Part shown: positions 17,340 through 62,418 of the stretch, piece after piece
Position numbering within the stretch: position 1 is the first letter of the stretch
Layout: every line of letters begins with the position of its first letter
Source of the DNA: Escherichia phage dhabil
Strand: one strand, 5' to 3'
Sequence record: MN850621.1
DNA length: 64,000 nt
The notes under the pieces: generated by a model
The model's input: the letters and a program-made list of their open reading frames with translations, nothing else
What the model was told of the DNA's origin: nothing
Database searches by the model: none
Translations under genes and position numbers: made by a program

Positions 17340-17508
17340 AATTCCACCATAAATTCAAATAACTGGTCGCGTACACAAGTATCAGTCCAACCCCATTCGT
17401 TGGCTTCTTCTTTTAACCAATCCGGGAGATTTGCTAATACGGTTTCTTTACTAGGGGCAGGAGTATCAAACTCTCCTGCACAGGTTTTATAGGCCATATC
17501 AAATTTGG

Positions 17509-39039: not shown

Positions 39040-39389
39040 GATTTACATTCCTTAATAAAGGTTTCAAGGTCATTACGTTTGGTTTGTTTTACATACTCAT
39101 TATAATTAGCCATCTCTAAAGCATATCTCTTACGGATGGGAGCATTCAAAGCATTTGTATGGCAAATATCATACACGAGAGGGATAAAATAAGCCACGAC
39201 AGCCGGAGCAATTATCATATAGAAACCCATCTCAATAGGCATGACTCCTTCGATTGCAGCCATAACTGTGGTCATTACCAGACCAACCAGACCGCCGAGC
39301 ATACCTGTGACAATTCCCGTGAATAAGGAAATAGCAATATCATATTCAGCCAATTGATAAACATGCGATGAAAGACTAGGCCGTTCCAT
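39036..39389 (-). CDS. hypothetical membrane protein
   Basis: Several hydrophobic helices; start set to internal ATG (MERPSL); uncertain. Confidence 0.4.
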   Translation of the reverse strand: MERPSLSSHVYQLAEYDIAISLFTGIVTGMLGGLVGLVMTTVMAAIEGVMPIEMGFYMIIAPAVVAYFIPLVYDICHTNALNAPIRKRYALEMANYNEYVKQTKRNDLETFIKECKS

Positions 39390-39918
39390 TTTGGACCTCT
39401 TTAGCGTATTCACGGCATTCAGCAATAAAGCGATTAAGCTTCCGTTGTTGTTTACGACTTTCTAATGTGTACTCAGCAGTTAAGATACCAAGCTCGGCTT
39501 TATCATAATTTTTAATATCAGTGTAAGATGGTCGACGGTCGACCATTCCAAATACATCACCATTTTCTAAAGCCACATAGCATACTAAATGGTAATCATC
39601 GTCTGCCATATTAAGAAGCACGCAATCATTGCTCTCATTTAAAGAATATACTGAATAACGTAGTCCAGCGAATTCCACTCGTTGAATAGCCAGATTTACG
39701 TCAATAATTTCCAAAGCATCTTCAAAAGAAAGGTCTTCAGCTAAAGCAAAAATAAAAGGTAATTTGGTAGTATCGCCACGGCTAGATGTTCTGCTTAAGA
39801 AATCGTTTGAATAGCCTAGGTCTTGGCGAATTCTATAAAGAACTGAATTGGTTTCATGGGAAAGACCACTATTTTTAAACCAATCAATATTTGATATAAG
39901 GTTATCATATAAACTCAT
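39376..39918 (-). CDS. hypothetical protein
   Basis: 180 aa ORF with strong SD GGAGGAGAGGAG. Confidence 0.5.
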   Translation of the reverse strand: MSLYDNLISNIDWFKNSGLSHETNSVLYRIRQDLGYSNDFLSRTSSRGDTTKLPFIFALAEDLSFEDALEIIDVNLAIQRVEFAGLRYSVYSLNESNDCVLLNMADDDYHLVCYVALENGDVFGMVDRRPSYTDIKNYDKAELGILTAEYTLESRKQQRKLNRFIAECREYAKEVQNGTA

Positions 39919-43936: not shown

Positions 43937-44820
<884 letters not shown>

Positions 44821-44828
<8 letters not shown>

Positions 44829-45582
44829 TTTTATTTCCTAATAATTTATCAATAGTAGTGTATAGTTCAGAAAGAGTGCCGTTATTTTCAATAACAACGT
44901 CACCAGGTAAAATTGGTAGACCCGCTTCAGTGATGTGCGAGTCTTGTACTTGACCGGTTTCAGCGCGAACTACATGAATAATCGTAGCACCCATCGCTCT
45001 GAGCGAATCAATTTCGTGTGTTTGACGAACATCAGGTACGACATAGTATTTCGCATCAGAGTATATTTTATCAAAATAGTCTAAAGCGAACAACTTAACC
45101 CAATACATCTTATCAAATTGGTTAACAATAATATCAGTCCCAAGGGTCTGCATGAGACGACGTACTGACCAATTGTTATTTTTATTTATTACTTCAAATA
45201 GCTGGTCTTTTGTTTCTTCAGACAGATACTGGGCCGGGGTAAGACCATAATGATATGCGATACGAACATCAATTCCTGGAATAGGAAGGATATTATTCAG
45301 CTTAACAATAGCATGTTCAAAAATATCAACCACATCATACGGTTTTAAAGGAATTATTTCTTCACGGTCATAACCGATACCTTCAAAACAATTAAAATCT
45401 AATTTAGGCATATAGCTACGGTCGAATACAGGGTCATCAGATATGTATTCATAAGCTTCAGCCAGATACTTTTTAATAGGACCAGCGAGTTGGAATTTTA
45501 CGGAATCCATATTCTCAATTACATAGTTAGCAACGGTATCCTTACCGCTACGTTTGATTCCTACAATTGATATTAGTTTCAT
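44821..45582 (-). CDS. 1: deoxynucleoside monophosphate kinase gp1
   Basis: P-loop GIKRSGKDT; WSVRRLMQTLGTD and MYWVKLFALDY blocks as in T4 gp1. Confidence 0.9.
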
Positions 45583-46172
45583 TATTTTCTCATAGATGGA
45601 TGCATAGACATACGAGCCACACGTTGTTCGGCATACGAATCAATTTGTGGACGACCTGTAACTATTGTACCATCTATTTCTACAGCAAACGACTTGAAGT
45701 TGAATGTTGCCGTAGCGATTATAGCAGGGTCAGAATCTTCTTTATACGAGTATTGGATTTCCGATAAGTCGGATGGCCAACCGCCGTAGTAATGAATGCT
45801 CATTACGATTTTCTGTTTGTTGTTATCAAGGATATGGAGGGTAATCGCTTCAGGCAAGCCTTTAGGATGCCAGGCTTCGGATTCATGTGTTACATAGTTG
45901 TTTAATGATAGCATCCATTTATAAACGTCCATCCATGATTTCAGCTCACGGTCTACAAGAAAGTTTACAATCAAGGGGTCGAATTCTACTGTAGAACCTG
46001 GCAGCTTAGCACGATGTATGCCCTGGGTCGATCCGGGGACGTCTGAGATAGGAATATGGATACCCGGTAGTGTTACATCTTGTACGTTCAATTTGAATGA
46101 CTGCGTCATTCCTGAGTCACTAACCTCTAAGATAAAGTTGGTAGTGTTAGTTTGGTTAAATAAACCGTTCAT
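45582..46172 (-). CDS. 3: tail completion/sheath stabiliser gp3
   Basis: 196 aa; position between gene 1 and gene 2 as in T4. Confidence 0.75.
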   Translation of the reverse strand: MNGLFNQTNTTNFILEVSDSGMTQSFKLNVQDVTLPGIHIPISDVPGSTQGIHRAKLPGSTVEFDPLIVNFLVDRELKSWMDVYKWMLSLNNYVTHESEAWHPKGLPEAITLHILDNNKQKIVMSIHYYGGWPSDLSEIQYSYKEDSDPAIIATATFNFKSFAVEIDGTIVTGRPQIDSYAEQRVARMSMHPSMRK

Positions 46173-46254
46173 AGGATTCCTATATTGCTTAAGTCCCAGA
46201 CAGTGTATAATGGTCCTAGGTCTATTCCATTCAATAACTGGCTGGGATAATAGA

Positions 46255-46905
46255 TTATTTTATAAATTCACGTAATCTTACAGGTGTCATAAAAGGCCAT
46301 TTGGCTATAGTTGGTTTTATCCAGTATCTTTCATGACATGTAGCTTTAAACGCCCGAACCATATCCTTGGCCTCTTCTATAGTATCCACACCAAATTGTT
46401 CACAAGTTTTCTTTCTGGCTTTATCCCATCTCCGTTTAGCAAGCTCTGCTTGGAGGTCTTTATTGGCAAAATGGCCATTATTCCTGTTATGTGTGGTTCC
46501 TTTAGTAGGGCTCCATCCTCGTCCCTTTACAAATCCTTTAGGGACAGGTTCGTCTGGGAATAATTTAATACACTTATCACCGTTATTATAATAAACCTTT
46601 CCGGTTTGGGTAGCTGTAATATTCTCAGAATGTTTACGTTTAAGCCACCCATAAAGCTTATTAGAACGACGAGGACCTTGAGTCATTGTCATAGCTGCAA
46701 AAGTTAGTCCAGGATGGCCCGGATGTATTTTAACTAATAGTTGATGTGCCAAATAATGTTCTTCAGGGGTTAAATCAACTAGGTTTGTAGATTCATCACC
46801 TCCACCCATACATCTAGGTAAGATATGATGAGACTCTGTATAGCAGGATAGTGCTCGTCCTTGAGCACGTTTAATTAATGAAGAATATATTTTCTGGTAA
46901 TCCAT
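46255..46905 (-). CDS. HNH homing endonuclease (free-standing)
   Basis: ESHHILPRCMGGGDESTNLVDLTPEEHYLAH is a canonical HNH block; inserted between gene 2 and gene 3; ATG overlaps gene 2 stop. Confidence 0.75.
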   Translation of the reverse strand: MDYQKIYSSLIKRAQGRALSCYTESHHILPRCMGGGDESTNLVDLTPEEHYLAHQLLVKIHPGHPGLTFAAMTMTQGPRRSNKLYGWLKRKHSENITATQTGKVYYNNGDKCIKLFPDEPVPKGFVKGRGWSPTKGTTHNRNNGHFANKDLQAELAKRRWDKARKKTCEQFGVDTIEEAKDMVRAFKATCHERYWIKPTIAKWPFMTPVRLREFIK

Positions 46906-47741
46906 TATGCGTTCTTCCAAACTTTCTGAGCACTGTAACGCTTACCTTTAGACATAAACTGCTGAAGAGGAAGTAGGGTTACGTTAGCCCAATCAGAAGG
47001 TTTTATCTCTACTAAAGGTCCCTTGATATTTCCAGGGATATAAGCCTTAATCATCGCGTCAGCACCAGCAAATCCTTTTACCTTACTCCAATCAATTTTT
47101 AATTTGGTCGAGTTCGTAATGGTAGGCGTACTCGCGTATTGCTTCAGCAATTCTTCTAGAAATTGTTGGCGTGCTTTAGGCGGAATATAGTGTAAGTTCA
47201 ACCCATACATCAGATTATGCTTACCGAGCCCAAGATAAATGATTAAAGGATATTTGTCCCAGTAGGGTAATGTGTCCTTGTGTTTAGCATCATAGATATA
47301 AGCATAAAGCTTACCAGGAGATGGTTTAGATACCTGGTGTCCACGAATTCCTTTCTTTAATGTTTCTGTAAACCATTTAGCTGATTTATTGTTTACAGCA
47401 GCGCCTTCGTTAGCAATCTTATCACGAATACTCTTTCTAAAACTATTCACCAAAATTAATTGACGTTCGGCTTTGGTCAATTTATTGCCAGGTTTCTTCT
47501 GAAGTTTTTCGACCTGTACGGCAGTTTTAATTCGACTCGAGTATCGAGACATCGCAGATGTAAAGCTAGAATACTTAATGCCTTTATCTTCAGCGAATTT
47601 CTTAGACGAGACACCTTTGGCCTTAGCTTTGGCATATTCAACACCTAAAGCTATCCATTGTTGCTCTGAACGAGTAGGCTTAGAACCTTTTGTGGTTTCA
47701 GTGGCCTCATTGATGTAGGAAAATATACTCATCCTTTCCAT
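46905..47741 (-). CDS. 2: DNA end-protector gp2
   Basis: 278 aa; position between gene 4 and gene 3 as in T4. Confidence 0.8.
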
Positions 47742-48178
47742 CCTAATTTTTTCAGTGAATGTTCGGTAATCAATCTAAAGTTGATACCCATTTTATCTGC
47801 GGTAGCTTTAGCGGCTTTCCACTTGTCACTATTCACAGACCAAGTATAATGTTCGTTAATATATCTCTTTTTAGCGGCAGTGGTCATTTTTACCGGAATC
47901 GCTGGAGGGTGGGTCTCTTTAAAAGGTTTGACTTCAAAAAAGAATTGTTGACCATTATCAAACTTAACCCAGAAGTCCATATAATATCGACGTTTCTTTC
48001 CTTCAGCATTACAAAAATATGGAATCACAACCTCTTCTGAATTCCATTGGACTACATTAGGATGATTATCAAGCCATCTCATTAGCCATGCTTCCCAAGA
48101 GGAACGATATTGGATTTTCTTCCAGTCACCTTTATATTTTTGTAAGTTTGTAGGTTTAAATTTCCCTGAGTAAGCCAT
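47729..48178 (-). CDS. 4: head completion protein gp4
   Basis: 149 aa; divergent from gene 53 with late promoter upstream. Confidence 0.8.
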
Positions 48179-48189
48179 AGTTGCCTCCT

Positions 48190-48197
48190 TATAAATA
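48190..48197 (+). promoter_or_regulatory. late promoter (TATAAATA) for gene 53
   Basis: Plus-strand TATAAATA about 28 nt upstream of gene 53 ATG. Confidence 0.6.
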
Positions 48198-48204
48198 TTA
48201 ATAT

Positions 48205-48212
48205 TATTTATA
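48205..48212 (-). promoter_or_regulatory. late promoter (TATAAATA) for gene 4 operon
   Basis: Minus-strand TATAAATA in the 46-bp divergent region between gene 4 and gene 53. Confidence 0.6.
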
Positions 48213-48224
48213 CTCGGAGGCCCT

Positions 48225-48827
48225 ATGCTCTTCTCATTTTTCGATCCTATCGATTACGAATCAAAAACAGTCAAGCCGGATTCGGGCTCATTAACAAATG
48301 CCGATGTATTGAGCGTGCCGATGACTGATATATTTAGAAATTATAAAGAATATTTTGATAAAGTGGCTAAAAATTATACACTAAAGACTTATTATATCAA
48401 TGGGGCCCCTCGTCCAGAAGAATTGGCCCATCTTCTTTATGGCAATGTCCAATTATATTGGGTTCTACTTATGTGCAACAATATATATGACCCTTATTAT
48501 GGATGGATTACCGGGCAAGAAGCAGCATATCAAGCGGCAATCCAAAGATATTCTACCGACGGCGGAAACCAGGTCCTTTACCATGTAAACGAAAAAGGTG
48601 AGAAATTCTGGAATCTTGTCAACACACCGGAAAATCCGTATACTTGGTATGATAAAGGCGATACAGAAAAACGTTATCCTCAATACGAAGGTCCATTAGC
48701 CGCAGTAGATATTTACGAGGATGCCATTCGTAAAAATGAATATAAGCGCGAAATAAAGATTATTGACCCTAATGATATTGAGTCTTTTATTTCTGCCCTT
48801 ATTCGTGAAATGGAGAAAGCCCTCTAA
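48225..48827 (+). CDS. 53: baseplate wedge protein gp53
   Basis: 200 aa; MLFSFFDPIDYESKTV…YYGWITGQEAAYQA resembles T4 gp53; late promoter upstream. Confidence 0.88.
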   Translation: MLFSFFDPIDYESKTVKPDSGSLTNADVLSVPMTDIFRNYKEYFDKVAKNYTLKTYYINGAPRPEELAHLLYGNVQLYWVLLMCNNIYDPYYGWITGQEAAYQAAIQRYSTDGGNQVLYHVNEKGEKFWNLVNTPENPYTWYDKGDTEKRYPQYEGPLAAVDIYEDAIRKNEYKREIKIIDPNDIESFISALIREMEKAL

Positions 48828-50569
48828 TGATTAACATGTCTGATAACGTAAGTTGGTTCGTCGGTGTAGTTGAAGACCGAATGGACCCACTCCAACAAGG
48901 TCGTGTACGCGTACGCGTATGGGGTATGCACCCGTATGAAAAAGTACAGGGCCCTGTAAAAGGCCTTCGTACGGAAGATTTACCATGGATGTCGGTATTA
49001 ATGCCTACATCTTCTGCCTCTGTTTCCGGTATCCAAACCGCTATGACTGGTATGGTCCCTGGTACACAAGTTTATGGCCATTTTCTTGATAAGTGGAAAT
49101 TAAACGGGCTTGTCCTTGGTACGTACGGTTCAGCATCAAAACAAAAGGCAAATCCAAACGAAGGTTTTAGTGACCCTACAGGGCAGTATCCGCTTTATTT
49201 AGGTAATGATGCCGCTGCACTAAACCGAGGTGGTGAAGTTGGATATGATGCCACTTCTAACGTAATACAAGATGCAAACACTGATGTAGGTATTAATCCT
49301 GACGGTTTGGATTTAAGCCAAGTTAAGCCTGATGATAATCCTAATTTCACAATAGAAAACATGCTTCATCGTGATGAAGGGCTTAGACTGAAGGTATATT
49401 GGGACACCGAAGGATACCCTACTATTGGTATAGGCCACCTTATTACTCCACAACCTATTAGAGATATGACCCAGATAAACAAAATATTATCTAATCAAAT
49501 AGGTCGAGAAGTTAAAGGTAATCCAGGTGCAATATCAATGGACGAGGCTTCTAAGTTATTCCAGGAAGACCTTAAAAAAGTTCAAAACGATATAGGTAGG
49601 CATAGTGTTGTAGGTCCGGTTTACAATAAAGAAAACCGTTCAAGACAAATGGCTCTTGAAAACATGGCTTTCCAAATGGGTTTAGGTGGACTTGCTAAAT
49701 TCCGTGGTATGCTCAGTGCTATGTTAATAGGCGATTATAAAAAGGCATTTGAGGAAGCTCGTAATTCAGTATGGTTTAACCAAACTAAGGGACGTGCCTC
49801 AAGGGTATCAATGATTATCCTTACCGGTAATATGGAATCATACGGTATTATGGCCCCTAAAGAAAGAGAATTTAATGGCCGTTCTTATAGGATGATTCAA
49901 ACCTTTGCAGCCCCTACAAATTCAGACCCAGCCGACCCATGGACTCCAGAAGATACAAGGATTCTTTTTAAAGAGCCGGATTCCAGTTATAAAGGCGAAT
50001 ATCCATATGTCCAAACCATGCAAACTGAAGGTGGGCATATCCAAGAATTCGATAACACACCAGGGCAAGAACGTTACCGATTAATTCACCCTACAGGTAG
50101 TTATGAAGAAGTTGCTCCTGATGGACGTAAAACTTCTAAGACCGTAGCCGACGGATATTATATGACCCAAGGCGATTCTAATACTTATGTTGGCGGTAAT
50201 AATAAAGTCAATATAGGTGGTGATGAAACCTATTATAATATGGCAAACGTTCGACGTCAAACTGACGGTTCTGAAAGCATCCATATTCGTGGTAACGAAA
50301 CCAAAACGGTAGAAGGCGACGGAACCCTTATTGTTAAAGGAAATGTTACGGTTATTGTTGAAGGCAATGCTGATATAACTGTTAAAGGTGATGCAAAAAC
50401 ATTAGTTGAAGGCAACCATGATTATACAGTAAATGGAAACGTTAAATGGTCGGTAAACGGAAACGTTGATATGACCGTTGCTGGTAATTGGTCTGAAACT
50501 ATGTCGACTATGAGTTCTATTGCATCCGGTCAATATACTATTGATGGTTCGAGGATTGACATTGGCTAA
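48827..50569 (+). CDS. 5: baseplate hub / cell-puncturing lysozyme gp5
   Basis: 580 aa; N-terminal OB domain, lysozyme block DEGLRLKVYWDTEGYPTIGIGHLI, C-terminal VEGN/VKGN beta-helix repeats; T4 gp5-like. Confidence 0.95.
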   Translation: MINMSDNVSWFVGVVEDRMDPLQQGRVRVRVWGMHPYEKVQGPVKGLRTEDLPWMSVLMPTSSASVSGIQTAMTGMVPGTQVYGHFLDKWKLNGLVLGTYGSASKQKANPNEGFSDPTGQYPLYLGNDAAALNRGGEVGYDATSNVIQDANTDVGINPDGLDLSQVKPDDNPNFTIENMLHRDEGLRLKVYWDTEGYPTIGIGHLITPQPIRDMTQINKILSNQIGREVKGNPGAISMDEASKLFQEDLKKVQNDIGRHSVVGPVYNKENRSRQMALENMAFQMGLGGLAKFRGMLSAMLIGDYKKAFEEARNSVWFNQTKGRASRVSMIILTGNMESYGIMAPKEREFNGRSYRMIQTFAAPTNSDPADPWTPEDTRILFKEPDSSYKGEYPYVQTMQTEGGHIQEFDNTPGQERYRLIHPTGSYEEVAPDGRKTSKTVADGYYMTQGDSNTYVGGNNKVNIGGDETYYNMANVRRQTDGSESIHIRGNETKTVEGDGTLIVKGNVTVIVEGNADITVKGDAKTLVEGNHDYTVNGNVKWSVNGNVDMTVAGNWSETMSTMSSIASGQYTIDGSRIDIG

Positions 50570-50579
50570 TATTTTACCT

Positions 50580-51101
50580 ATGAGCACTGATTTAGGAGAC
50601 TCCATGGAAGGAGCCTCAATCGATGTTACGTTTACCGCTCAATTAGAAACAAACGAAACATTAGTTGAAATAAATATAACAGAATATGAGCCAACAGAAG
50701 GCATTATTGTCGATGGGGCTCGTTTATACGGAACCTATGAATCGGTATTTGGATTCTCTGAAGATGCGTTAAAATATCGATTAGGTGATGAATTTAAAAC
50801 AGCAGGTTCATGGAAAGATTTACCAGAGGACAAGAGCACTCAATTATACCTCTGGAAAGCCCCTGGTAATCTTCAGAAGACTTTTTCCTATACTGTCACA
50901 TTAATCTATGACTTTCAGGAAGAGTCATCAGGAGGTGATACAGGGAGCTCAGGAGGAAGTAATTCTAGAGCCGGTAGCGAAACCGACCCTCCTCCAGCAC
51001 CAGTAAGAAAAACCCTTACTAAGGTTTATACCAAGGTTATAGTGGGTAATTGGAGCAAATGGGCTAATCAACTCAGAGAATATGTATATGCGAGGCCATA
51101 A
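50580..51101 (+). CDS. 5.1: gp5.1-like protein
   Basis: ORF after gene 5; start set to first ATG downstream of gene 5 stop (MSTDLGD…). Confidence 0.55.
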
Positions 51102-51394
51102 TGTCGGGCTTAAGTTATAACCAATGCGTAACCGCAGGTCATGAAGCATGGCCTCCTACAGTAATAAATGCCACCCAGGGTAAAGTATTTACAGGCGGCA
51201 TTCCTGTATTAGTCGATGGGGACCCAATAACTCCTCATACAGAAATTAAAAAACCATATGAAACCCACGGTGGGGTAACCCAACCTAGAACATCAAAGGT
51301 ATATGTTACAGGCAAAAAGGCTGTCCAGATGGCAGACCCTATTTCGTGCGGTGATACAGTCGCACAAGCCTCATCTAAAGTATTCATAAAATAG
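51101..51394 (+). CDS. 5.4: PAAR-repeat spike tip protein gp5.4
   Basis: 97 aa, Gly/Pro-rich with His and Cys, same size and position as T4 gp5.4. Confidence 0.8.
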
Positions 51395-51402
51395 GAATTA
51401 AA

Positions 51403-53361
51403 ATGGCTACTCCTACGAATTACCAATTAACAAGAACCGTTAACGCTATCCCAAAAGTATTTGTGGGAGCTACGTTTGAAGAAATTAAAAAGAATATTAT
51501 AGACTGGCTTTCCAGCCAGGACGAATTTAAGGATTATGATTTCGTTGGTTCTCGAATGAATATCCTTATTGATATGCTTGCTTATAATACCCTTTATATG
51601 CAGCAATTTGCTAACACAGCTTTATACGAATCTTTTATAGGAACAGCAAACCTTCGTTCTTCTGTTGTCCAAGCTGCACAAGACAATGGATATCTCCCTA
51701 GTTCTAAGTCTGCAGCTAAAACTACGGTAATGCTCACATGCACGCAAGCCCTTAATGAAAAGAATATTCGTATCCCTAGAGGTACCAAATTCTTGGCTTA
51801 TGCACGTGATACATCAGCAGACCCATATTCTTTTGTGACAACTGATAACGTTATCGCAGTGCGAGACGTTAATAATCAGTATTGGCCTATTGTTTCTTTG
51901 GCCCAGGGACGTATTATTCGTACTGAACTTAAATATGACCCTAAAACTCCTATTCTTATTCGTGACCCTGATATTGATAGACAAGAAGTTAGACTTTACG
52001 TTGATGGCGCAGAATGGATTAACTGGACCAATAAATCAATGGTCCACGCTGGCAGTACTTCAACAATTTATTATATGCGTGAAACCGTAGATGGTAATAC
52101 AGAATTCTTCTTTGGTGAGGGTGAAGCCGAGAAATCTGTTGCGGGTGGAGTATTGGAAGCTAATTATATCGGCGGCCTAAAACCTGTTAAAGATTCTACT
52201 ATCGTCATCGAATATCTTCGTACAGATGGTGAAGTTGCTAACGGTGCGGTGGACTTCAGTTATGCTGACTCCTTGGCTTATATTACTGTAGAAAAAATTA
52301 CTGAAAACTATAACGACGACCCTGATTATGTGGGTGCTGATGGTGGTGGCGACCCTGAAGATATTGAACGAATCCGTGAATTGGCTGTAGTTAAGCGTGA
52401 AGCCCAGATGCGTGCTGTAACAGGAACCGACTACGATACATTCGTATCCGAACGTTTTGGTTCTATCGTGCAAGCAGTACAAACCTTTACAGACCCAAAT
52501 AAACCCGGTTATGCTTTTGTCACCATTAAACCTAAATCAGGGCTATATTTGACCGCGGTCCAACGTGAAGATATCCAAGACTATCTAAAAGAATTTAACT
52601 TAGCCCCTATTACCGCTTCTGTTATTTCTCCCGATTATTTGTTCTTAAAGCATAAAATTAAGGTATCGTATGCCTTGAATAAATTACAGGAATCTGAACA
52701 GTGGTTATCGGCCCAAATTCTTTCTCAGATAGACCGTTATTATATTAACGAAGTAGAAATTTTTAACCACGGATTCGCTAAGTCAAAAATGCTGACTTAT
52801 ATTGATAATGCTGACCATAGTATTTTAGGCTCCTCTGCTACCATAACAATGGTTCGTGAGGTATTGAACTTTTTCAAAACTCCTGAGTCAGGTATTAAAT
52901 ACTATAATCAATACACTAACCGTTCTGTGGTTTCTAGTGAATTTGAGTTTGTCCCTACTAACGTTTCTGAAGACCACCCGGCATATAATGTACGAATTGC
53001 CGCTACAGATAAAGACGAACGTGGTGATGGTAAAATGGTTATTGGGCCTTTCCGTCCAGGAGATGTAATTGAAAACCAATATATTAAACCATATACAGGA
53101 AATGACTTTGATAAAATGCCTGCTCCTGCAGACCAATCCGTTTATTACGTTATAGGTGAAATCGATTATTATTCAGATTTCATTTTCTGGGACATCGCGG
53201 CTATTGGTTTAACGTCCGACCGTTTTGAAGTTCAATCTATAGAACTTTATGCGGGACCTGACCAAGATAACATCTTTACAAAAGATGGTTCATTAATCGT
53301 ATTTGAAGATGACCTCCGCCCTCAATACACGACCATTGAATTAGAACCTATTACAATATAA
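51403..53361 (+). CDS. 6: baseplate wedge protein gp6
   Basis: 652 aa; NYQLTRTVNAIPKVFVG… and HAGSTSTIYYMRETVDGNTEF blocks as T4 gp6. Confidence 0.92.
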   Translation: MATPTNYQLTRTVNAIPKVFVGATFEEIKKNIIDWLSSQDEFKDYDFVGSRMNILIDMLAYNTLYMQQFANTALYESFIGTANLRSSVVQAAQDNGYLPSSKSAAKTTVMLTCTQALNEKNIRIPRGTKFLAYARDTSADPYSFVTTDNVIAVRDVNNQYWPIVSLAQGRIIRTELKYDPKTPILIRDPDIDRQEVRLYVDGAEWINWTNKSMVHAGSTSTIYYMRETVDGNTEFFFGEGEAEKSVAGGVLEANYIGGLKPVKDSTIVIEYLRTDGEVANGAVDFSYADSLAYITVEKITENYNDDPDYVGADGGGDPEDIERIRELAVVKREAQMRAVTGTDYDTFVSERFGSIVQAVQTFTDPNKPGYAFVTIKPKSGLYLTAVQREDIQDYLKEFNLAPITASVISPDYLFLKHKIKVSYALNKLQESEQWLSAQILSQIDRYYINEVEIFNHGFAKSKMLTYIDNADHSILGSSATITMVREVLNFFKTPESGIKYYNQYTNRSVVSSEFEFVPTNVSEDHPAYNVRIAATDKDERGDGKMVIGPFRPGDVIENQYIKPYTGNDFDKMPAPADQSVYYVIGEIDYYSDFIFWDIAAIGLTSDRFEVQSIELYAGPDQDNIFTKDGSLIVFEDDLRPQYTTIELEPITI

Positions 53362-53376
53362 GCCTCTTAGGAGGCT
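53361..53376 (+). other. hairpin between gene 6 and gene 7
   Basis: AGCCTC-TTAG-GAGGCT immediately before the SD of gene 7. Confidence 0.4.
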
Positions 53377-53389
53377 TTGAGGAGATTTA

Positions 53390-56300
53390 ATGTCTGTGCA
53401 AGCGCCTTCCGTTACTAGTTTGAGAATTGATAAACTCTCGGCTAACCATGTAAGTATTCTTTGGGATGACGTAGGCGCCAATTTCTATTATTTCGTAGAA
53501 CTGGCCCAAACCAAGGATGCGGGTGAATCTATACCCGATGATAAGTTATTTTGGAGAAATTTAGGTTACACCCCGAACAATAACTGGTTCGAAGAAAGAT
53601 TTATTTCTCCTAATTCGTTTTATAAAATGCGTGTCGCTGTAGCTGCTCAAGGATTTGAACAATCTGAATGGGTTTATACAGAAGAATTCGAGACATTTTC
53701 TACCAACGCATATACCTTCGAGCATATGCGAGAATTCACTTTATCCAATAAATTCATTGAAGAAAAATTTACCAAAAATAACCAGAATTACGTGGATTTT
53801 AATAGTGATGCCATTATGGCTTCTATGATGACAGAGGATTTTACTTGGACTCCATCGTATTCTCACCTTTCTTCAATTTCTAATTATGTATTAAAGGCTG
53901 ACCGCTTTCATGAGATTCAAGGAAGTATTCAAGCCGTATGTAAGGACCCTAATCGTTCCATTTTAATGGAGCTTGGTGGTGTACTTTATCTTTTAGAAAG
54001 ATTTCAGAACACTGCTAAGGTATCTAATGACAAAGCTCAAAACTGGCACTATATTCGTTTGTTTAATGACCGAGTAGGTAACCCGGTTTCACGTACGGCC
54101 CATTACCAAACGGACACCACAACTTATGTTTTAGGTTATGACCGTATATTTTACGGACGTAAATCGAGCGATATCAGATGGTCTGCTGACGATGTACGTT
54201 TTAGCTCACAAGACGTGACATTTGCTAAAATTGGTAGTGATATCGACCTTGATTTTGAAATTGAAATTTTTGGTTCTTATGCCCGTTTACCATTAGCTAT
54301 TTCTACTATAGCAGAGGCAATGTGTGCTTCGGATGATTTTATTTACGTGGCTGCTAGAGACAGAGTTTATAAAGCAAAAACCACCGATGCGCCTATTGAT
54401 ACCGACCCAGGTTCTCCTACTTATGGTGAAAAAATATTTGAAAGTGGATATTCGACCATAACCGGCAACCCTAAAGCAGTTTGTTATAAATTGGACTCTA
54501 TTCAAGGAAATACTTTTGCCTTAATTACGGGTGAAGTTAAAGAAGAAAGAATGGACCCTACTAAAGAAGAAAACGTGGTTGATTCTGAATCTAAAGGCGT
54601 TTATTGGTTGGATGCTGAAACTGATACATGGACCAGAGTATTTGGTAATACTGAAGAAGAGAGACGTCGTATTGAGCATGGTTATACCAGCATGTCTACA
54701 GACGGTGAAGAAATATTCTTTAGCTCAAGTAACTTCAAATACGAGGTGGAAGTTGACAACGAATTGCCTTTAGAATACCCTATCGTGGCTTCTGCCGTAA
54801 AATACGTTAAGGATGAGCAGTGGATTCATGATAAACATTATCTGATGATGAGCTTTAGAGCCAACAGTAAATCAGATTTTAAAGAATTCAAACCTGGCCG
54901 AATGGCTTATTACGCCGAACCATTCTTTAGTTGGTCTAGACGCGATGGAACCCGCTCTTGGATTACCACAAGTAATCATGCGATGGTAGTTTATAACGAT
55001 GCATTATATCAGAAAATTATTGATTTAAACAGTGGTTCTTCTCCAGAGCGTATTATCCGTGAAATTTGGGATAAAGGCTTTTGTACCGTAACATGCCCTA
55101 ACATTGAATTCAGCGGATTTAAAAAATATTCTTCAGGTATTATGATTCACAAATCATCAGGTGAATTGGTAGGATATTTCGAGTTCGATTATCGAGTTCG
55201 AGATGAAGTTAGAATAATTTGGAAGCCTAAAGAAATAATGTTTACCGCAGAGCTCCAAAACCAAGAGCATGAAATCCCATGGACCCCTAAAGAAGAAACA
55301 GGTGAACAAGACCCTGATTTGCGTCCTTTATTGGTTAAAATGGTCCCTGATAGTTATTTGCTTCAAGATTCTAACTTTGAAAAATTCTGCGAATATTATC
55401 TTCAGTTTATTAGTGATGGCTCTGGCACTCATTATAATAACCTATTAAATCTTATTCGTAACCAATATCCTCGTGAAGAAGACTCGTGGGAATATTTGTG
55501 GTCCGAAATCTATAAACGTAATATCTACCTGTCTAAAGAAAAGCGCGACGAAGTGGTTCGTTTCTTCCAGGCTCGTCAATCGGATTTCTGGTCTACAAAA
55601 GGTACCGAGGCTTCTTATAAGTTCCTGTTTAAATTGCTTTATAACGAAGATGTCGAAATTGATATAGAGTCTAAGAACTCTATTGAATATGATATCATTG
55701 TAGAATCCGATAACATCAGTGAAGATATTGTCGGCCAAACAATTTATACCCCTACAGGAAGAAGTAATGTTACTTATATAGAACGAAATTATAAAGATGG
55801 TAAATTGCAATGGCGTTTAACCATTCATAATCTTTTAGGTCGTTTTATAGTGGGTCAAGAGATTAAATCTGAACGCACATCATTTAAAGGTATGATAGTG
55901 CAGGGTGTACGCGGTAAAGAATTGTTAAGTAACAATATCGATTATATTAACCGCAACCGTTCTTATTATGTTATGACTATTAAATCCAACCTCCCTACTT
56001 CTCGATATCGTAATGATGTATTGAGATTTGTCCACCCTGTAGGATTTGGTTTTATAGGGATTACGTTGCTTTCTATGTTTGTTAACGTCGGTTTGACATT
56101 AAAGCACACGGAAACCATTATTAATATACTTAAGAACTATAAGTGGGACTCAGGTCTTCCATCTGAATGGTATGATAGAGTTGCTGTAATCGGATTTGAT
56201 GGTAATATAGAACGAGACCCTAGAACAGGGCTCCCGGTTTATAACGTTGGACCTAAAGCAGGTGAACCGTTTGATATTCCTGCTGATTATGACGCAGAAA

Positions 56301-56482
56301 ATGATTTCTCTGTATTCCAAGGCCAATTACCTCATGAACGTATTAAAAAGCATAGTCCTTTATTTGACCAAAGTGCAGTAACATTTTCAAAATGGCGTGC
56401 TTTAGTTGATGACAGACTTAAAGCTGATATAGGAAACCCTAGAGACCCGCAAGACCCAACTCAGGTAAAAATTGATGATTAA
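53390..56482 (+). CDS. 7: baseplate wedge protein gp7
   Basis: 1030 aa, size and position of T4 gp7. Confidence 0.88.
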   Translation: MSVQAPSVTSLRIDKLSANHVSILWDDVGANFYYFVELAQTKDAGESIPDDKLFWRNLGYTPNNNWFEERFISPNSFYKMRVAVAAQGFEQSEWVYTEEFETFSTNAYTFEHMREFTLSNKFIEEKFTKNNQNYVDFNSDAIMASMMTEDFTWTPSYSHLSSISNYVLKADRFHEIQGSIQAVCKDPNRSILMELGGVLYLLERFQNTAKVSNDKAQNWHYIRLFNDRVGNPVSRTAHYQTDTTTYVLGYDRIFYGRKSSDIRWSADDVRFSSQDVTFAKIGSDIDLDFEIEIFGSYARLPLAISTIAEAMCASDDFIYVAARDRVYKAKTTDAPIDTDPGSPTYGEKIFESGYSTITGNPKAVCYKLDSIQGNTFALITGEVKEERMDPTKEENVVDSESKGVYWLDAETDTWTRVFGNTEEERRRIEHGYTSMSTDGEEIFFSSSNFKYEVEVDNELPLEYPIVASAVKYVKDEQWIHDKHYLMMSFRANSKSDFKEFKPGRMAYYAEPFFSWSRRDGTRSWITTSNHAMVVYNDALYQKIIDLNSGSSPERIIREIWDKGFCTVTCPNIEFSGFKKYSSGIMIHKSSGELVGYFEFDYRVRDEVRIIWKPKEIMFTAELQNQEHEIPWTPKEETGEQDPDLRPLLVKMVPDSYLLQDSNFEKFCEYYLQFISDGSGTHYNNLLNLIRNQYPREEDSWEYLWSEIYKRNIYLSKEKRDEVVRFFQARQSDFWSTKGTEASYKFLFKLLYNEDVEIDIESKNSIEYDIIVESDNISEDIVGQTIYTPTGRSNVTYIERNYKDGKLQWRLTIHNLLGRFIVGQEIKSERTSFKGMIVQGVRGKELLSNNIDYINRNRSYYVMTIKSNLPTSRYRNDVLRFVHPVGFGFIGITLLSMFVNVGLTLKHTETIINILKNYKWDSGLPSEWYDRVAVIGFDGNIERDPRTGLPVYNVGPKAGEPFDIPADYDAENDFSVFQGQLPHERIKKHSPLFDQSAVTFSKWRALVDDRLKADIGNPRDPQDPTQVKIDD

Positions 56483-57479
56483 TTCAACAGTAATATATCG
56501 TTCTATTGTTACTTCTAAATTTAGAACGGAAAAGATGTACAACTTTTACAGAACAATCGGTGATGGTGAAGACCAGAACACGATGTATGTATCTTTCGGG
56601 AGAGCCCAACCATGGGCTCCTAACGAAAACGACCCAGGCTTTGCTCCACCGTATCCTGTAGATGATTCTGAGGGCGTAGAGGACGTCTGGACAAACATGA
56701 TGGGTTGTGTTAAGGTTTATAAGAGTATGTTGGATTGTGTTGTTCCTCGCAAAGACTGGGGCGATACCTCTTATCCTAATCCTTTCACATTCCAGATTGG
56801 TGAAATTGTAGTGGCGAATAGCCAGCCGCAAAACCGTACTGATGTTGGTGCAGGTTGGATGGTTTATCGTTGTGTGGATGTTCCTGAATCCGGAGCATGC
56901 TCTATTTTATCTCTTGATAATAAAACCGAGTGTATTAAACTTGGCGGTAAATGGACCGCAAACGTCCCTTCAGTTAAAGCTCCAGCAGGACAAGGCGATA
57001 CCGAAGGTATGGTTGATACCGGCGATGGGTATCTTTGGGAATATCTTTATGAGATTCCACCTGATGTAAGTATCAACCGTTGTACCAATGAATATATTGT
57101 AGTTCCATGGCCGGAAGAAATTGCTGAAGACCCTGAACGTTGGGGATACGAGAATAACCTCACTTGGCAACAAGACGATTACGGATTGATTTATCGTATT
57201 AAAGGCAATACTATTCGTTTTAAAGCATTCTTAGATTCAGTTTATTTCCCTGAATTTAGTTTGCCAGGGAATAAAGGATTTAGACAACTTTCAATAATTT
57301 CCAACCCATTGGAAGCTAAAGCCCACCCATCAGACCCGATCATTAAAGCCGAAAAAGAGTACTATGACGTTATAGACCTCTCCCGCCACTCCGGTGAAAT
57401 GATTTATATGGAAAACCGTCCTCCGGTTATTCGTTCCATGGACCAAACCGAAGAAATTAACATTATCTTCGAATTCTAA
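56472..57479 (+). CDS. 8: baseplate wedge protein gp8
   Basis: 335 aa, size and position of T4 gp8. Confidence 0.88.
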   Translation: MMINSTVIYRSIVTSKFRTEKMYNFYRTIGDGEDQNTMYVSFGRAQPWAPNENDPGFAPPYPVDDSEGVEDVWTNMMGCVKVYKSMLDCVVPRKDWGDTSYPNPFTFQIGEIVVANSQPQNRTDVGAGWMVYRCVDVPESGACSILSLDNKTECIKLGGKWTANVPSVKAPAGQGDTEGMVDTGDGYLWEYLYEIPPDVSINRCTNEYIVVPWPEEIAEDPERWGYENNLTWQQDDYGLIYRIKGNTIRFKAFLDSVYFPEFSLPGNKGFRQLSIISNPLEAKAHPSDPIIKAEKEYYDVIDLSRHSGEMIYMENRPPVIRSMDQTEEINIIFEF

Positions 57480-57480
57480 T

Positions 57481-57500
57481 AAAGGGCCGCAAGGCCCTTT
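57481..57500 (+). terminator. hairpin (GCAA loop) after gene 8
   Basis: GGGCC-GCAA-GGCCC followed by TTT; late promoter of gene 9 follows. Confidence 0.5.
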
Positions 57501-57506
57501 CGGGGG

Positions 57507-57514
57507 TATAAATA
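57507..57514 (+). promoter_or_regulatory. late promoter (TATAAATA) for gene 9
   Basis: Plus-strand TATAAATA about 27 nt upstream of gene 9 ATG, after a hairpin. Confidence 0.6.
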
Positions 57515-57540
57515 CATTATATCAATAATGAGGCATACCT

Positions 57541-58401
57541 ATGATTAAGCAAACTGGTAAATTACTAATTGACGTTGGTGAAATTGGTAATGCTAGCACC
57601 GGCGACATTCTTTATGACGGTGGTGTTAAACTAAACACCGACTTAAACAACATCTATAATACCTTTGGTGACCAACGTAAAACCGCTCTTACAGGCGAAA
57701 CTACCGGTCAGAAATTACATGCCACTGGATACTATCAAAAATTTGGCGATACCGACCAAGCAAGTTCTGTTGACCTTGGTTCTTTGGTTGATATTGATGC
57801 TTCTACAGGTTCTATAGTGTTAACCACGGTAAAAGGAGCCGTAGGTGAAGGTATTGAAATAATTAACTCTAATGGAAGTATTTCAGCTACCAACTATCTT
57901 GAAATCCGTATATTGGATTCGTTTTTAAACCATCCTACATCAACCCTAAGAATAGTAACTCCTTATACTAGAGTTCTATTATGGTGTGTAAGTGACATCA
58001 ACGGTATAGCTGTATGGGATTATTCTATTGAGAGCATGTTTGGTGATAAACGAGTGCCGTTAAATAGAACATATAACATTTCTAACGTACCTAGAGATAT
58101 ACCGGTGGTTTTTTCAGGTCAATATTCTTTGGTCAAGCTTTTAGTTACCGCAGTAAATGCTAATGAAACCATTTATAAAGCTTCTGAATATCTTTTGTTT
58201 ATGGATAACCAAGCTAAAAAAATATATTCCACCGAATATGCTGTTATCCGTCGTGGACAGACCACTGATGAAGACGAAATTTACAAACTCGATTTTAAAT
58301 TTGATACCTCTAACTATATAGTGGCTACGGCATCATCTGAAACCCCTATGAGATTAGCAATTAAAGTCGTAGATACCCAAACTATTGGAGTTCCATTATA
58401 A
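57541..58401 (+). CDS. 9: baseplate wedge / long tail fibre socket gp9
   Basis: 286 aa; late promoter TATAAATA upstream; size and position of T4 gp9. Confidence 0.88.
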   Translation: MIKQTGKLLIDVGEIGNASTGDILYDGGVKLNTDLNNIYNTFGDQRKTALTGETTGQKLHATGYYQKFGDTDQASSVDLGSLVDIDASTGSIVLTTVKGAVGEGIEIINSNGSISATNYLEIRILDSFLNHPTSTLRIVTPYTRVLLWCVSDINGIAVWDYSIESMFGDKRVPLNRTYNISNVPRDIPVVFSGQYSLVKLLVTAVNANETIYKASEYLLFMDNQAKKIYSTEYAVIRRGQTTDEDEIYKLDFKFDTSNYIVATASSETPMRLAIKVVDTQTIGVPL

Positions 58402-60212
58402 TGAAACAAGAATTAAAAATAGGCCAGGCCGTTGATGATGGCTCCGGAGATTACCTGCGCGCAGGTGGTCTAAAAATCAATAATAACTTTAACGAGTTAT
58501 ACTATCAATTAGGTGATGGAGATAATCCTCACGCTGCTGGTGCCTGGAAACAATATTCTACTGCAGATGGTCCTTTACTTAATGCTGTTATGGGTCATAG
58601 CTATACGTTGAATACCCAGGGTGGAAGGATTAACGTTCAACTTCCTAAAGGTACCCCTTCAGAATATAACTTTGTAATTCGTTTGCGTGACGTTTATTCT
58701 TCTTGGCAAGCTAACCCTGTAACAATTATACCTGCTCCAGGTGATACGATTAAAGGCTCTGCTGTACAGGTTGAAATAGCCCGTAACTTTGCTGACCTTG
58801 AACTTGTCTATTGTGCTCCGGGTCGCTGGGAATATGTTGAGAACAAGCAAGTTAACCGTATTCCAAATAACGACCTCGCTACTGTAGCAACCAAACAGTT
58901 TATTGCTACTGAAGGCCAAACCGATTTCTTGGATATTTTCCCAGGATTAACCTATAATATTTCTAGTCTTAGCGTAATTCAACGTGGTAACACCTTGTTT
59001 TATGGTGTAGATGATATATTTGATGAAGCCACTTCAGAGTTCGGTAGCCCAGGCGCTAACCCAGGCGAATTGGTTGAATTGAACGGTAAAGATATCCGTT
59101 TGAAATATCCATGTGAAGCCGGTGATACAGTAATCATTAAATCCTATAACGATGGATTGGCCCAATGGCGTAGTTCTTATAATCGTCGTGATATTACTAT
59201 TTTAGATAAAACCCTTACCCATGAAACCACAGTTAACGGTTCTAAAGTAGTATTAGACCTTTCTACCATACAGACTATTACCGCGGTGGAATTAAATGTT
59301 TCTCCTACAAGCCCTATTAACCCTAATGCTTGCCAGGTAATGCTTAACAGTACTTTATTGCACCAAGCTGGTACTGCAGGGTTCCCTGCTTTCTATTGTG
59401 AAGGTGTTGATACTGATGATGCAGCTCTTTGTGCTGATTCGGGTGGTGTATGGACACAATCTAAATCTGATTATATTTTGAATATTGCAGATGACGATAA
59501 AATCGAATCATTCGAATTTGGACGTAAATTAGAACATGGTGATATCCTTACCGTAATTTGGTATAATAATGATATTGGTACTACCATGACTATTGATGAG
59601 ATTTTGGATACTACAAATGATATCTACATTTCTCAAGGTCCTTCGGTGTCTTTAACCGGCCAGGTTCGTATTACTGATGTGGATAATCCATTTTCTCCTA
59701 ACTTTGAACCTGTTGCAGAATCCGAAGTTTCTATTAATACGGCTGCAGTGATGTTCGATTTGTTCCATCCAATAGGGACAATTTACGAGAACACGGTGAA
59801 CCCTAATAACCCTGCAACTTATATGGGTATGGGTAGTTGGAAACGTTTATCTGATAGTTTCCTTGTAGGTTGGTCGCCGGATGCAGATTCATTGTTCAAT
59901 GCGAACAATAACGATTTGGATTCTTCTGGTATTCCTAAATCTACCGCAGGTGGAACAGGTGGTTCTCATAATATTTCGATTAAATATGAAAATGTTCCTG
60001 AACTTAATACAGATGACAAGGTATTAGTTGCTGATGATAATGGCCCTATTGTTATCGGTGGATGTTTGGTAGACCCGGATGCACAAGGTCCTGCTTATAC
60101 CAAATATCGTGAAGATAAAGCTACAATAAACAAGCAGCAATCTACAACGCCTATTCCAATTAATACATTGCCTCCATATACAACCGTTTATCGCTGGGTG
60201 AGGATTGCGTAA
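58401..60212 (+). CDS. 10: baseplate wedge protein gp10
   Basis: 603 aa, size and position of T4 gp10. Confidence 0.88.
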   Translation: MKQELKIGQAVDDGSGDYLRAGGLKINNNFNELYYQLGDGDNPHAAGAWKQYSTADGPLLNAVMGHSYTLNTQGGRINVQLPKGTPSEYNFVIRLRDVYSSWQANPVTIIPAPGDTIKGSAVQVEIARNFADLELVYCAPGRWEYVENKQVNRIPNNDLATVATKQFIATEGQTDFLDIFPGLTYNISSLSVIQRGNTLFYGVDDIFDEATSEFGSPGANPGELVELNGKDIRLKYPCEAGDTVIIKSYNDGLAQWRSSYNRRDITILDKTLTHETTVNGSKVVLDLSTIQTITAVELNVSPTSPINPNACQVMLNSTLLHQAGTAGFPAFYCEGVDTDDAALCADSGGVWTQSKSDYILNIADDDKIESFEFGRKLEHGDILTVIWYNNDIGTTMTIDEILDTTNDIYISQGPSVSLTGQVRITDVDNPFSPNFEPVAESEVSINTAAVMFDLFHPIGTIYENTVNPNNPATYMGMGSWKRLSDSFLVGWSPDADSLFNANNNDLDSSGIPKSTAGGTGGSHNISIKYENVPELNTDDKVLVADDNGPIVIGGCLVDPDAQGPAYTKYREDKATINKQQSTTPIPINTLPPYTTVYRWVRIA

Positions 60213-60877
60213 TGACTTTAACAGAAATGAAAAGCGGGTTAAAATCCCGCCTTGCCGACTTTTTAGAATTTTCTTTTACAACTAATCAACCTGCCGCAGT
60301 GGCAGGTCAACGCCCTATTGGTGGTCCATCGGCAAACCAAACCCGAAAAGGCGTTTATTACCCTACAGTCCAAAGTGCTATTGATGATATTGCTTTCCGC
60401 GCAGAACTTCCTGTTAATGCGGTGGTAACTACTACCGAAAACAGAGCGCCTGGCTTTATCCAACAATCTGATAAATTAACTTTCTCTGGCTCCATTTCTT
60501 CTGGTGGCGAATTAGGCGATACGGTTATAATTAAGGTATTTGGTTTGCCTGTTGAAGTTATTGTGGGTGATTCTTCGGTTCTGGTTGCTTCTAAAGTTAA
60601 CGATGTTTTTATAAGCGCTATTGCTAATAGTTATATTTTAGCAGAAACCTCTATCGACCCTCTGGACCAATCTACTTTAAACATTAAATATAACGACTAC
60701 CAAAACCATATTTTTGAGCCATTTAAACAGGCTGGATGTACCATTTCCCAAACTATAGTCCAAGAGCCTCGTGCAGGTTATGGATACTGGGAATATTTAG
60801 GTTCTACTACAGAATCTATGACCGGTGGAACTATAAATGGAACTACAACTTTATATCACTATAAGCGAGTAAGTTAA
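60212..60877 (+). CDS. 11: baseplate wedge protein gp11
   Basis: 221 aa, size and position of T4 gp11. Confidence 0.88.
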   Translation: MTLTEMKSGLKSRLADFLEFSFTTNQPAAVAGQRPIGGPSANQTRKGVYYPTVQSAIDDIAFRAELPVNAVVTTTENRAPGFIQQSDKLTFSGSISSGGELGDTVIIKVFGLPVEVIVGDSSVLVASKVNDVFISAIANSYILAETSIDPLDQSTLNIKYNDYQNHIFEPFKQAGCTISQTIVQEPRAGYGYWEYLGSTTESMTGGTINGTTTLYHYKRVS

Positions 60878-62409: not shown

Positions 62410-62418
62410 GGAAATAAA

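Follow-up and report, generated by a model that had tools for sequence, protein, structure and literature searches.

The small gene that overlaps the gene 2 stop codon of Escherichia phage dhabil is, with high probability, a functional, free-standing HNH homing endonuclease gene (hereafter HEG) of the T4 Mob family. By sequence comparison, the window (the whole stretch of 64,000 nucleotides that was analyzed, from record MN850621.1) is dhaeg-type DNA with a patch of approximately 730–750 bp from a donor of the type found in the metagenomic contigs L015 and L016, and this patch records homing in nature, with co-conversion of an asymmetric tract of 77–94 bp. The element as such is already known: The protein has been deposited as a homing endonuclease, its orthologue in RB32 has carried a mobB-like annotation for a long time, and the biology of Mob enzymes is established. 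The modest value of the present case lies in its being a clean natural example, with a near-isogenic pair (the window phage and dhaeg), a donor type and a short, one-sided tract.

The first-pass annotation had described an open reading frame (ORF) of 216 aa with the HNH block HHILPRCMGGGDESTNLVDLTPEEHYLAH between genes 2 and 3, its ATG overlapping the gene 2 stop as TAATG. Both statements are confirmed by the ORF list and the raw sequence, which also give the strand, left unstated by the annotation, as minus (table 1): The ORF extends from an ATG at 46905 to a TAA at 46257–46255, the HNH block corresponds to residues 26–54, and the minus strand at the junction reads AAG AAC GCA TAA TGG ATT, in which the TAA of gp2 (46907–46905) and the ATG of the HEG (46905–46903) have one base in common. 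An in-frame TTG is found upstream of this ATG, at 46920, and would give a protein of 221 aa if used; gene 2 also has an in-frame ATG at 47741, upstream of that at 47732. The identity of gp2 is further given by the Pfam assignment Phage_T4_gp2 in the L015 gene table and by the annotations of relatives. Megablast of the region leads to the genus Dhakavirus (JS98-like T4-type coliphages), with dhaeg and CLB_P2 as the nearest relatives at approximately 99% identity; dhabil and dhaeg are the two Dhakaviruses from a Danish wastewater survey (PMC7552041). The HEG protein is 100% identical to QHR72551.1, the homing endonuclease of Escherichia phage dhabil.

Table 1.— Features of the gene 2/gene 3 region discussed in the text (nucleotide positions in the window; residues of the HEG protein where indicated).
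Feature	Position	Strand	Basis or remark
gp1, dNMP kinase	44821–45582	minus	Pfam DNMK, 1.6e-89
Gene 3 (gp3), tail completion/sheath stabiliser	45582–46172	minus	PHROG 45, 3e-48; annotations of relatives
Intergenic region, 82 bp	46173–46254	minus	between HEG stop and gene 3 start
Insert, 650 bp	46254–46903		absent in HEG-less relatives; multiple alignment
Homing endonuclease gene (HEG), 216 aa	46255–46905	minus	ORF list; raw sequence; PHROG 655, 7.3e-55
N-terminal Mob-type HNH module	approximately residues 1–130
Lineage-specific helical C-terminal module	approximately residues 144–216
Co-converted tract, 3' end of gene 2	46904–46983	minus	15 substitutions versus dhaeg
Gene 2 (gp2), DNA end protector, 275 aa	46905–47732	minus	PHROG 429, 1.9e-80
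Shine-Dalgarno-like GGAAG	46914–46918	minus	8 nt upstream of the HEG ATG; putative role
Candidate recognition/nicking region and self-immunity patch	46953–46985	minus	gp2 codons N250–M260; putative
Gene 4 (gp4), head completion	47729–48178	minus	PHROG 218
T4-type late promoter motif TATAAATA	48205–48212	minus	upstream of gene 4; motif scans

By these measures the ORF is a real gene and not a chance reading frame, because its product matches PHROG 655 (homing endonuclease) in a profile search and has 1960 homologues at E<=1e-10, and because dN/dS between the window copy and the other Dhakavirus class is 0.05–0.08. The earlier reading of the product as an HNH homing endonuclease is supported by homology to T4 MobB and MobE, by matches to MobB and MobC models and by invariant HNH residues, and this evidence identifies the gene as a free-standing member of the T4 Mob family. 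Searched with tblastn, the T4 genome has five places that match the HEG protein; MobB is 47.7% identical over residues 1–99 (4e-21), and MobE of RB9 is 40.4% identical over 142 aa (residues 1–142; 8e-22). The description of the HNH block as canonical holds in part: In an alignment of 47 homologues, no variation occurs at H26, H27, N41, H50, or H54, whereas no Pfam model matches the protein even at E<=10. NCBIfam gave no usable family assignment for the protein, and a sequence search of the PDB returned only matches with E = 0.3–0.7.

The same alignment divides the protein in two. Residues 1 to approximately 130, the N-terminal module, are conserved across all 47 sequences, and residues from approximately 130 to 216 are conserved only in the lineage found at the gene 2/gene 3 junction. 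An HNH module joined to a distinct C-terminal region is the design described for the T4 mob genes (PMC2988022), and it is the architecture that the alignment indicates here, with a putative role in DNA binding for the C-terminal part. In the AlphaFold2 model of the protein (pLDDT 90.3), strands 24–27 and 42–45 and helix 47–60 form a predicted beta-beta-alpha unit that is followed by a helical C-terminal domain; taken with the alignment, the model provides the catalytic His, the structural Asn and the metal-binding His on the helix that are expected of the HNH superfamily. Among the predicted structures of BFVD, Foldseek matched the model to T4 MobB (3.4e-11) and MobC (5.8e-7), and many viral predicted structures labeled as HNH or homing endonuclease also match. 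Foldseek against the PDB gave no significant match, with HNH domains dominating the weak top matches. Further comparison with solved structures gave unspecific helical matches.

To characterize the insertion site, the gene 2/gene 3 junction was compared across relatives, as the first-pass annotation had proposed, and a presence/absence polymorphism was found. A multiple alignment of seven HEG-less sequences (dhaeg, CLB_P2, JS98, JS10, Bp7, IME08, and CUA3) and eight HEG-bearing ones (with the occupied-site relatives QL01, E33, ABTNLS3, LQ5, SHP1, 04086, and C6) shows a clean indel of 650 bp exactly at the gp2 stop, the boundary of which is ambiguous by 5 bp owing to an ATTAT at both edges. Most Dhakaviruses lack the HEG, including the two nearest relatives of the window: Only 10 of the 51 Dhakavirus records with at least 90% identity cover it, the rest giving a two-piece match that skips it. 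All nine Dhakavirus copies of the HEG are intact at 216 aa; a decay of the gene in SHP1 and C6, for which shorter coding sequences are annotated, was considered and rejected, as these are annotation artefacts of intact copies.

The HEG is not confined to the Dhakaviruses. Orthologues lie at the gene 2/gene 3 junction in RB32, RB33, HY03, Kosakonia phage 305, Serratia phage X20, and others, and an orthologue was found in 3 of approximately 44 T4-like loci of IMG/VR with adjacent gp2 and gp3. In a second genus, comparison of the contigs L055 (HEG-bearing) and L030 (HEG-less) gives the same nucleotide position for the insertion, the gp2 stop being followed by TCTATTATC. Mob genes occupy sites between conserved adjacent genes at which presence and absence are polymorphic, and such a site is what these comparisons reveal.

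The insert thus corresponds approximately to the ORF alone and lies between two genes, in agreement with the earlier description of the endonuclease as free-standing. No family was matched in Rfam at E<=1 over 45500–48300, which argues against a group I intron in this region; an intron- or intein-encoded homing endonuclease was ruled out on the basis of this result and of an insert that is ORF-sized and intergenic. Terminal repeats of at least 10 nt were absent from the insert edges, and a transposable element was ruled out by the lack of such flanking repeats, the ATTAT ambiguity being all that was found, and by the lack of homology to transposases. The intergenic region of 82 bp is common to both types of site and follows directly after gene 2 in HEG-less phages. 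It is 95–100% identical for most Dhakaviruses and 91% identical to L015/L016, with coding flanks at approximately 92%, and contains a predicted hairpin of −20.5 kcal/mol (z = −1.7).

The dN/dS of the HEG is in the same range as that of gp2, gp3, and gp4, which indicates that the gene is under purifying selection. The first-pass annotation had named universal presence at the junction, purifying selection and a lack of any mobility signature as the combination that would speak against a mobile endonuclease; the selection is there, whereas presence is far from universal and mobility signatures are found. Purifying selection also bears on a different explanation, namely that the nuclease is kept for a benefit to the phage, instead of or besides selfish spread. 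Such benefits could consist in excluding the markers of co-infecting phages while dragging along the adjacent gp2 allele, or in a role in recombination or anti-defence. A dN/dS as low as that of essential neighbors and nine intact Dhakavirus copies out of nine would fit this explanation, and the dS of approximately 0.33 between the two Dhakavirus classes of the HEG, similar to that of the flanking genes, suggests long residence; a beneficial side effect of a T-even homing endonuclease has been published for SegB, with anti-defence amplification (PMC13096335). However, most Dhakaviruses live without the gene, the two nearest relatives among them, a homing endonuclease gene can also stay intact simply by invading again and again, and the sequence indicates no second function. 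We therefore regard a maintained benefit as unlikely, if the strongest of the alternatives to a homing endonuclease gene spreading selfishly.

Strong evidence for mobility comes from the comparison of the window with dhaeg. Outside the insert and the 3' end of gene 2, the window flanks are 99.7–100% identical to dhaeg, with only two other differences in 46984–64000 (17 kb) and seven in 44000–46253 (2.3 kb, on the gene 3 side). Next to the insert, 15 substitutions are packed into 64 bp, from 46920 to 46983, a cluster that has a Poisson probability of approximately 5e-33 given this background, and the outer recombination breakpoint can be placed between 46984 and 46997. An exact search of IMG/VR for the window-specific tract gave no match. 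A look-up of the exact protein found the two metagenomic contigs of the donor type. Their HEG is 99.5% identical to that of the window at the DNA level, with three synonymous changes and an identical protein; they are identical to the window over the gene 2 tract 46904–46980, and at 14 of the 15 sites that differ from dhaeg, L015 and L016 have the base of the window. The flanking genes of both contigs are only approximately 91% identical to the window, and the contrast is seen equally in synonymous divergence from L015, with a dS of 0.02 for the HEG and 0.25–0.6 for the flanking genes.

Divergence between the two contigs and the window resumes at 46998, from which position the window is again dhaeg-type, and at 46243 on the opposite side. 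Besides the HEG, the patch hence includes 77–94 bp of gene 2, and it extends no more than 10 bp toward gene 3. Outside it, the window and dhaeg are sisters (seven differences) and CLB_P2 is an outgroup (27 and 32 differences). Because dhaeg and CLB_P2 are furthermore identical within the tract, a single gain of the HEG on the window branch is more parsimonious than two identical losses. Endonuclease-initiated gene conversion with co-converted flanking markers is expected to leave the same pattern (PMC2988022, PMC2790892), and spread with co-conversion, a further mark of Mob genes, is visible here in dhaeg-type flanks that enclose an L015-type patch. The earlier suggestion of a mobile element at a variable site is borne out by this match of the tract to a divergent donor lineage and by the absence of the gene from most of the genus. 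It is the only clean natural gain for which a donor type has been identified.

The substitutions also point to a candidate target. Ten of the 15 fall within 46971–46983 and change gp2 from N-V-V-M-M-P to N-V-T-L-L-P, and the other HEG class of the Dhakaviruses has N-V-I-G-L-P in this patch. In Dhakaviruses without the HEG, and in most HEG-less phages from other genera, the patch reads N-V-V-M-(M/L)-P-L-Q-Q-F-(M/V); according to codon tables, all six HEG-bearing lineages examined have at least one amino-acid replacement in this otherwise conserved patch, the alleles being TLL, IGL, TLM, VLL plus F-F, and Q-S-F-Y. Between −25 and −79 from the gp2 stop, the HEG-bearing L055 differs from the HEG-less L030 by 15 substitutions, with none for 200 bp beyond the HEG. 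Kosakonia phage 305 and the HEG-less L026 likewise differ in a dense cluster, from −9 to −75, the former having V-T-L-M and the latter V-V-M-M. In all three comparisons with a dense cluster the outer edge lies at −75 to −79. In RB32 and L032, both HEG-bearing, Q-S-F-(Y/Q) replaces Q-Q-F-(M/V).

We give roughly even chances to the proposal that the target of the HEG lies in gp2 codons 250–260 (46953–46985). The more specific proposal, that the target is the N-V-V-M-(M/L)-P-L-Q-Q-F-(M/V) segment and that carriage of the HEG forces its recoding, with different solutions per lineage, is put forward a shade more tentatively. The phage vB_EcoM_005 (L023) is HEG-less and has the I-G-L patch, returning to the HEG-less type between −45 and −16, a mosaic that conversion events beginning at the patch would leave if some of them were resolved short of the HEG. 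The patch allele is associated with HEG presence (Fisher P of approximately 1e-4), which is no independent evidence because the patch is physically linked to the insert at a distance of 50–80 bp. A nonconsensus patch is found in several HEG-less phages: vB_EcoM_005, T4_ev151, and L029, L034, and L046 (V-V-L-L). The target-site claim is limited by the comparison of RB32 (HEG-bearing) with T4_ev151 (HEG-less), which did not reproduce the dense cluster; besides reshaped last few codons, the two have only three differing sites between −72 and −18. The IMG/VR contigs L033–L038 were rejected as HEG-less comparators for RB32, being of other genera with approximately 30% mismatch. The junction comparison covered approximately 35 loci.

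Should the proposal be correct, a selfish nuclease would repeatedly drive change at the protein level in an essential virion protein and would leave "resistant empty" alleles in the population, as in vB_EcoM_005 and possibly T4. A polymorphic nick region for MobE in nrdB parallels this arrangement of the gp2 patch (PMC2790892).

It could be argued that the patch was moved by ordinary homologous recombination during co-infection, the nuclease being uninvolved and perhaps inactive. T4-type phages are very active recombiners, and the window has other small mosaic patches and indels relative to dhaeg, such as the substitution clusters near 11488 and at 39290–39500. We nevertheless consider this improbable: The exchanged segment is just the HEG with a one-sided tract of 77–94 bp, in two other genera the HEG likewise adjoins a dense cluster, with its outer edge again at approximately −75 to −79, and the purifying selection on the gene is strong. 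Even less probable is long vertical inheritance of an accessory gene that is no longer mobile and that most lineages have lost by deletion. Orthologues at the same junction in several genera, with a divergence that roughly tracks gp2 (76% HEG identity to a Kanagawavirus-like protein, 60% to the RB32 type and 50% to L032), agree with such a history, but a phage with a flank dS of 0.25–0.6 has a HEG 99.5% identical to that of the window, while the window's own flanks match those of a HEG-less phage at 99.7–100%. Vertical inheritance would require two losses, each restoring an identical tract, and the full congruence of HEG and genome trees that it predicts is already contradicted here. An HNH nuclease for head or tail morphogenesis or packaging, comparable to the HNH proteins that accompany the terminase in cos phages, is hardly credible despite the late transcription unit in which the gene lies and its place between gp3 and the DNA end protector gp2, as the HEG is absent in approximately 80% of Dhakavirus records and at this position in T4, its homology is to Mob homing endonucleases and not to packaging HNH proteins, and the naturally HEG-less relatives amount in effect to a viable knock-out.

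The first-pass annotation had placed the gene within the late structural operon. This is supported by motif scans, in which the nearest TATAAATA precedes gene 4 and no promoter motif occurs from there to gene 3. The copy at 48205–48212 is the only one upstream on the HEG strand, with a divergent partner at 48190; between 48203 and 46100 the minus strand holds no late-like motif (at most one mismatch to TATAAATA) and no MotA box. Matches to sigma70-like promoters are fewer than expected from shuffled sequences, and the minus strand has none in a suitable place. The HEG hence appears to be promoterless inside a late 4–2–HEG–3 unit, an arrangement that experiments have demonstrated for mobE (PMC2790892). 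The Shine-Dalgarno-like GGAAG is formed by the gp2 codons W272–K273, and a start/stop overlap with gene 2 is present in every lineage examined, as TAATG in the window and Kosakonia phage 305, TTGA in L055, and ATGA in L032 and RB32. This recurrence across lineages makes translational coupling to gene 2, which had been suggested earlier, a more plausible arrangement. Two further elements were considered and rejected: A hairpin of GGAAGAA with HEG codons 8–10 that could sequester the ribosome-binding site is no better than in shuffled sequences (z = +0.79), and a terminator-like hairpin inside the HEG (46723–46708) is at chance level (three found versus 2.2 ± 1.4 expected).

Together, these observations suggest the following model. 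The HEG would be transcribed with the late unit that runs from gene 4 through gene 2 to gene 3, and ribosomes ending at the gp2 UAA may restart at the overlapping AUG with the help of GGAAG, giving low-level, late expression. During co-infection the enzyme would bind the gene 2 of a HEG-less genome and nick or cut it approximately 50–80 bp upstream of the stop, presumably in the conserved N-V-V-M-M-P-L-Q-Q-F-M coding stretch; we infer cleavage as such, its position and its strand from the sequence patterns. After resection of the break, the HEG-carrying genome would serve as template for its repair, so that the 650-bp gene is copied along with the DNA from the break to the insertion site, and the dhaeg-like window with its L015-like patch has the composition expected of the product of such a repair. 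The carrier genome would be immune through its own recoded stretch, N-V-T-L-L in the window. In a wider sense, the case illustrates the local mosaicism and the nonsynonymous change that elements of this kind make in a structural gene, and an uncharacterized Mob lineage with a predicted target of approximately 33 bp in gene 2 offers a directly testable system.

Among the papers searched, none characterizes the lineage at the gene 2/gene 3 junction. Its members in RB32 (RB32ORF146c), RB33, HY03, Kosakonia phage 305, and Serratia phage X20 have in common with the window copy the junction, the full-length architecture and the start/stop overlap, and by these features the RB32ORF146c-type genes are an orthologous lineage of the HEG; they have 50–77% amino-acid identity to the window protein and differ in their gp2 patch alleles. 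RB32ORF146c is annotated as "similar to mobB; not conserved from T4 position," and MobB is indeed the best T4 match to the HEG both by sequence (4e-21) and by predicted structure (3.4e-11). In contrast to the HEG, MobB has 264 aa and lies between alpha-gt and alpha-gt.2, and the homology is limited to the N-terminal module.

Two systems outside the Mob family are similar in part. Like SegG and SegF of T4, which act by "intronless homing," the HEG is free-standing and would cut a neighboring conserved gene away from the insertion site, with co-conversion of the intervening markers and marker exclusion (PMC2988022); unlike the HEG, SegG and SegF belong to the unrelated GIY-YIG catalytic family, their sites are hundreds of base pairs away, and they make double-strand cuts. 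With I-HmuI of Bacillus phage SPO1, which is cited as a structural model for Mob enzymes (PMC2790892) and the homing of which is initiated by nicking, the HEG has in common an extended two-module design of an HNH part and a DNA-binding part (putative in the HEG), whereas I-HmuI is intron-encoded and the HEG protein gave no significant match to solved structures.

The closest parallel is MobE of T4, encoded between nrdA and nrdB. The mobE gene is promoterless and relies on upstream transcription, and MobE nicks nrdB at a site where mobE+ and mobE− phages differ in sequence; the gene spreads with co-conversion of flanking sequence (PMC2790892; reviewed in PMC2988022). The HEG resembles it in a homologous N-terminal HNH module, an intergenic position between conserved genes, the lack of a promoter of its own, a putative target in an adjacent gene that is polymorphic between carriers and noncarriers, and co-conversion. 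It differs in that its site and presumed target gene is gene 2 and not nrdB, in its C-terminal domain, and in a presumed target that lies upstream of the endonuclease gene and would be unusually close to the insertion point, at only approximately 50–80 bp. All features of the Mob family that sequence analysis can examine are present in the HEG, and it probably works like T4 MobE.

A dense cluster of substitutions was found in the last ~80 bp of gene 2, adjoining the orthologous endonuclease gene, in two genera besides Dhakavirus, with an outer edge at -75 to -79 from the gp2 stop in both comparisons (L055 against L030, and L078 against L026, the first of each pair encoding the endonuclease). 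Within the Dhakaviruses, vB_EcoM_005 lacks the free-standing HNH endonuclease gene (HEG); its gp2 patch (codons 250-260; gp2 3' end, about 3250-3328) nevertheless carries the HEG-linked I-G-L allele, and nearer the stop codon its sequence is of the HEG-less type. The gp2 3' end of vB_EcoM_005 may represent a "resistant empty site" or the product of an aborted homing event.

Features at and around the HEG locus; coordinates are those of the window unless a genome is named.
Feature	Coordinates	Strand	Basis or location
T4-type late promoter motifs (TATAAATA), divergent pair	48190 and 48205-48212	+ and -	between gene 4 and gene 53
gp4, head completion	47729-48178	minus	Pfam Tn7_TnsA-like_N (endonuclease fold), 2e-23
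82-bp region between gene 2 (or HEG) and gene 3	46173-46254	minus	sequence comparison
ORF orthologous to L015 gene 57B-position ORF	44143-44598	minus	position/orthology
Gene 2 substitution cluster, genus 1	L055 3247-3301		comparison with L030
Gene 2 substitution cluster, genus 2	L078 (Kosakonia phage 305)		comparison with L026

Across most Dhakaviruses the 82-bp region before gene 3 shows 95-100% identity, and 91% to L015 and L016 (metagenomic donor-type contigs), whereas its coding flanks reach only ~92%. The region can also be recognised in one genus beyond Dhakavirus. Within it a UCCCAG...CUGGGA hairpin is predicted (-20.5 kcal/mol, z = -1.7), and promoter motifs of the late and MotA types are absent; the divergent pair accounts for both of the late motifs found between 43000 and 50000. 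For the L015 ORF at the gene 57B position, the precomputed table lists Pfam Acb1.

Further small indels and mosaic patches separate the window from dhaeg, its near-isogenic HEG-less relative (9744-9947, 17340-17508, about 28909, 30781 and 39403), among them a 169-bp replacement. The window-only segment comprises 204 bp, and segments of about 200, 208 and 320 bp are present in dhaeg only, the ~320-bp one including dhaeg_126; substitution clusters lie near 11488 and at 39290-39500.

In Tequatrovirus, RB32, which encodes the endonuclease, and the HEG-less T4_ev151 have in common the unusual gp2 allele L-Q-S-F-Y, whereas teqskov has the consensus L-Q-Q-F-V. Given this distribution, T4 itself may hold a formerly HEG-linked gp2 allele without the gene.
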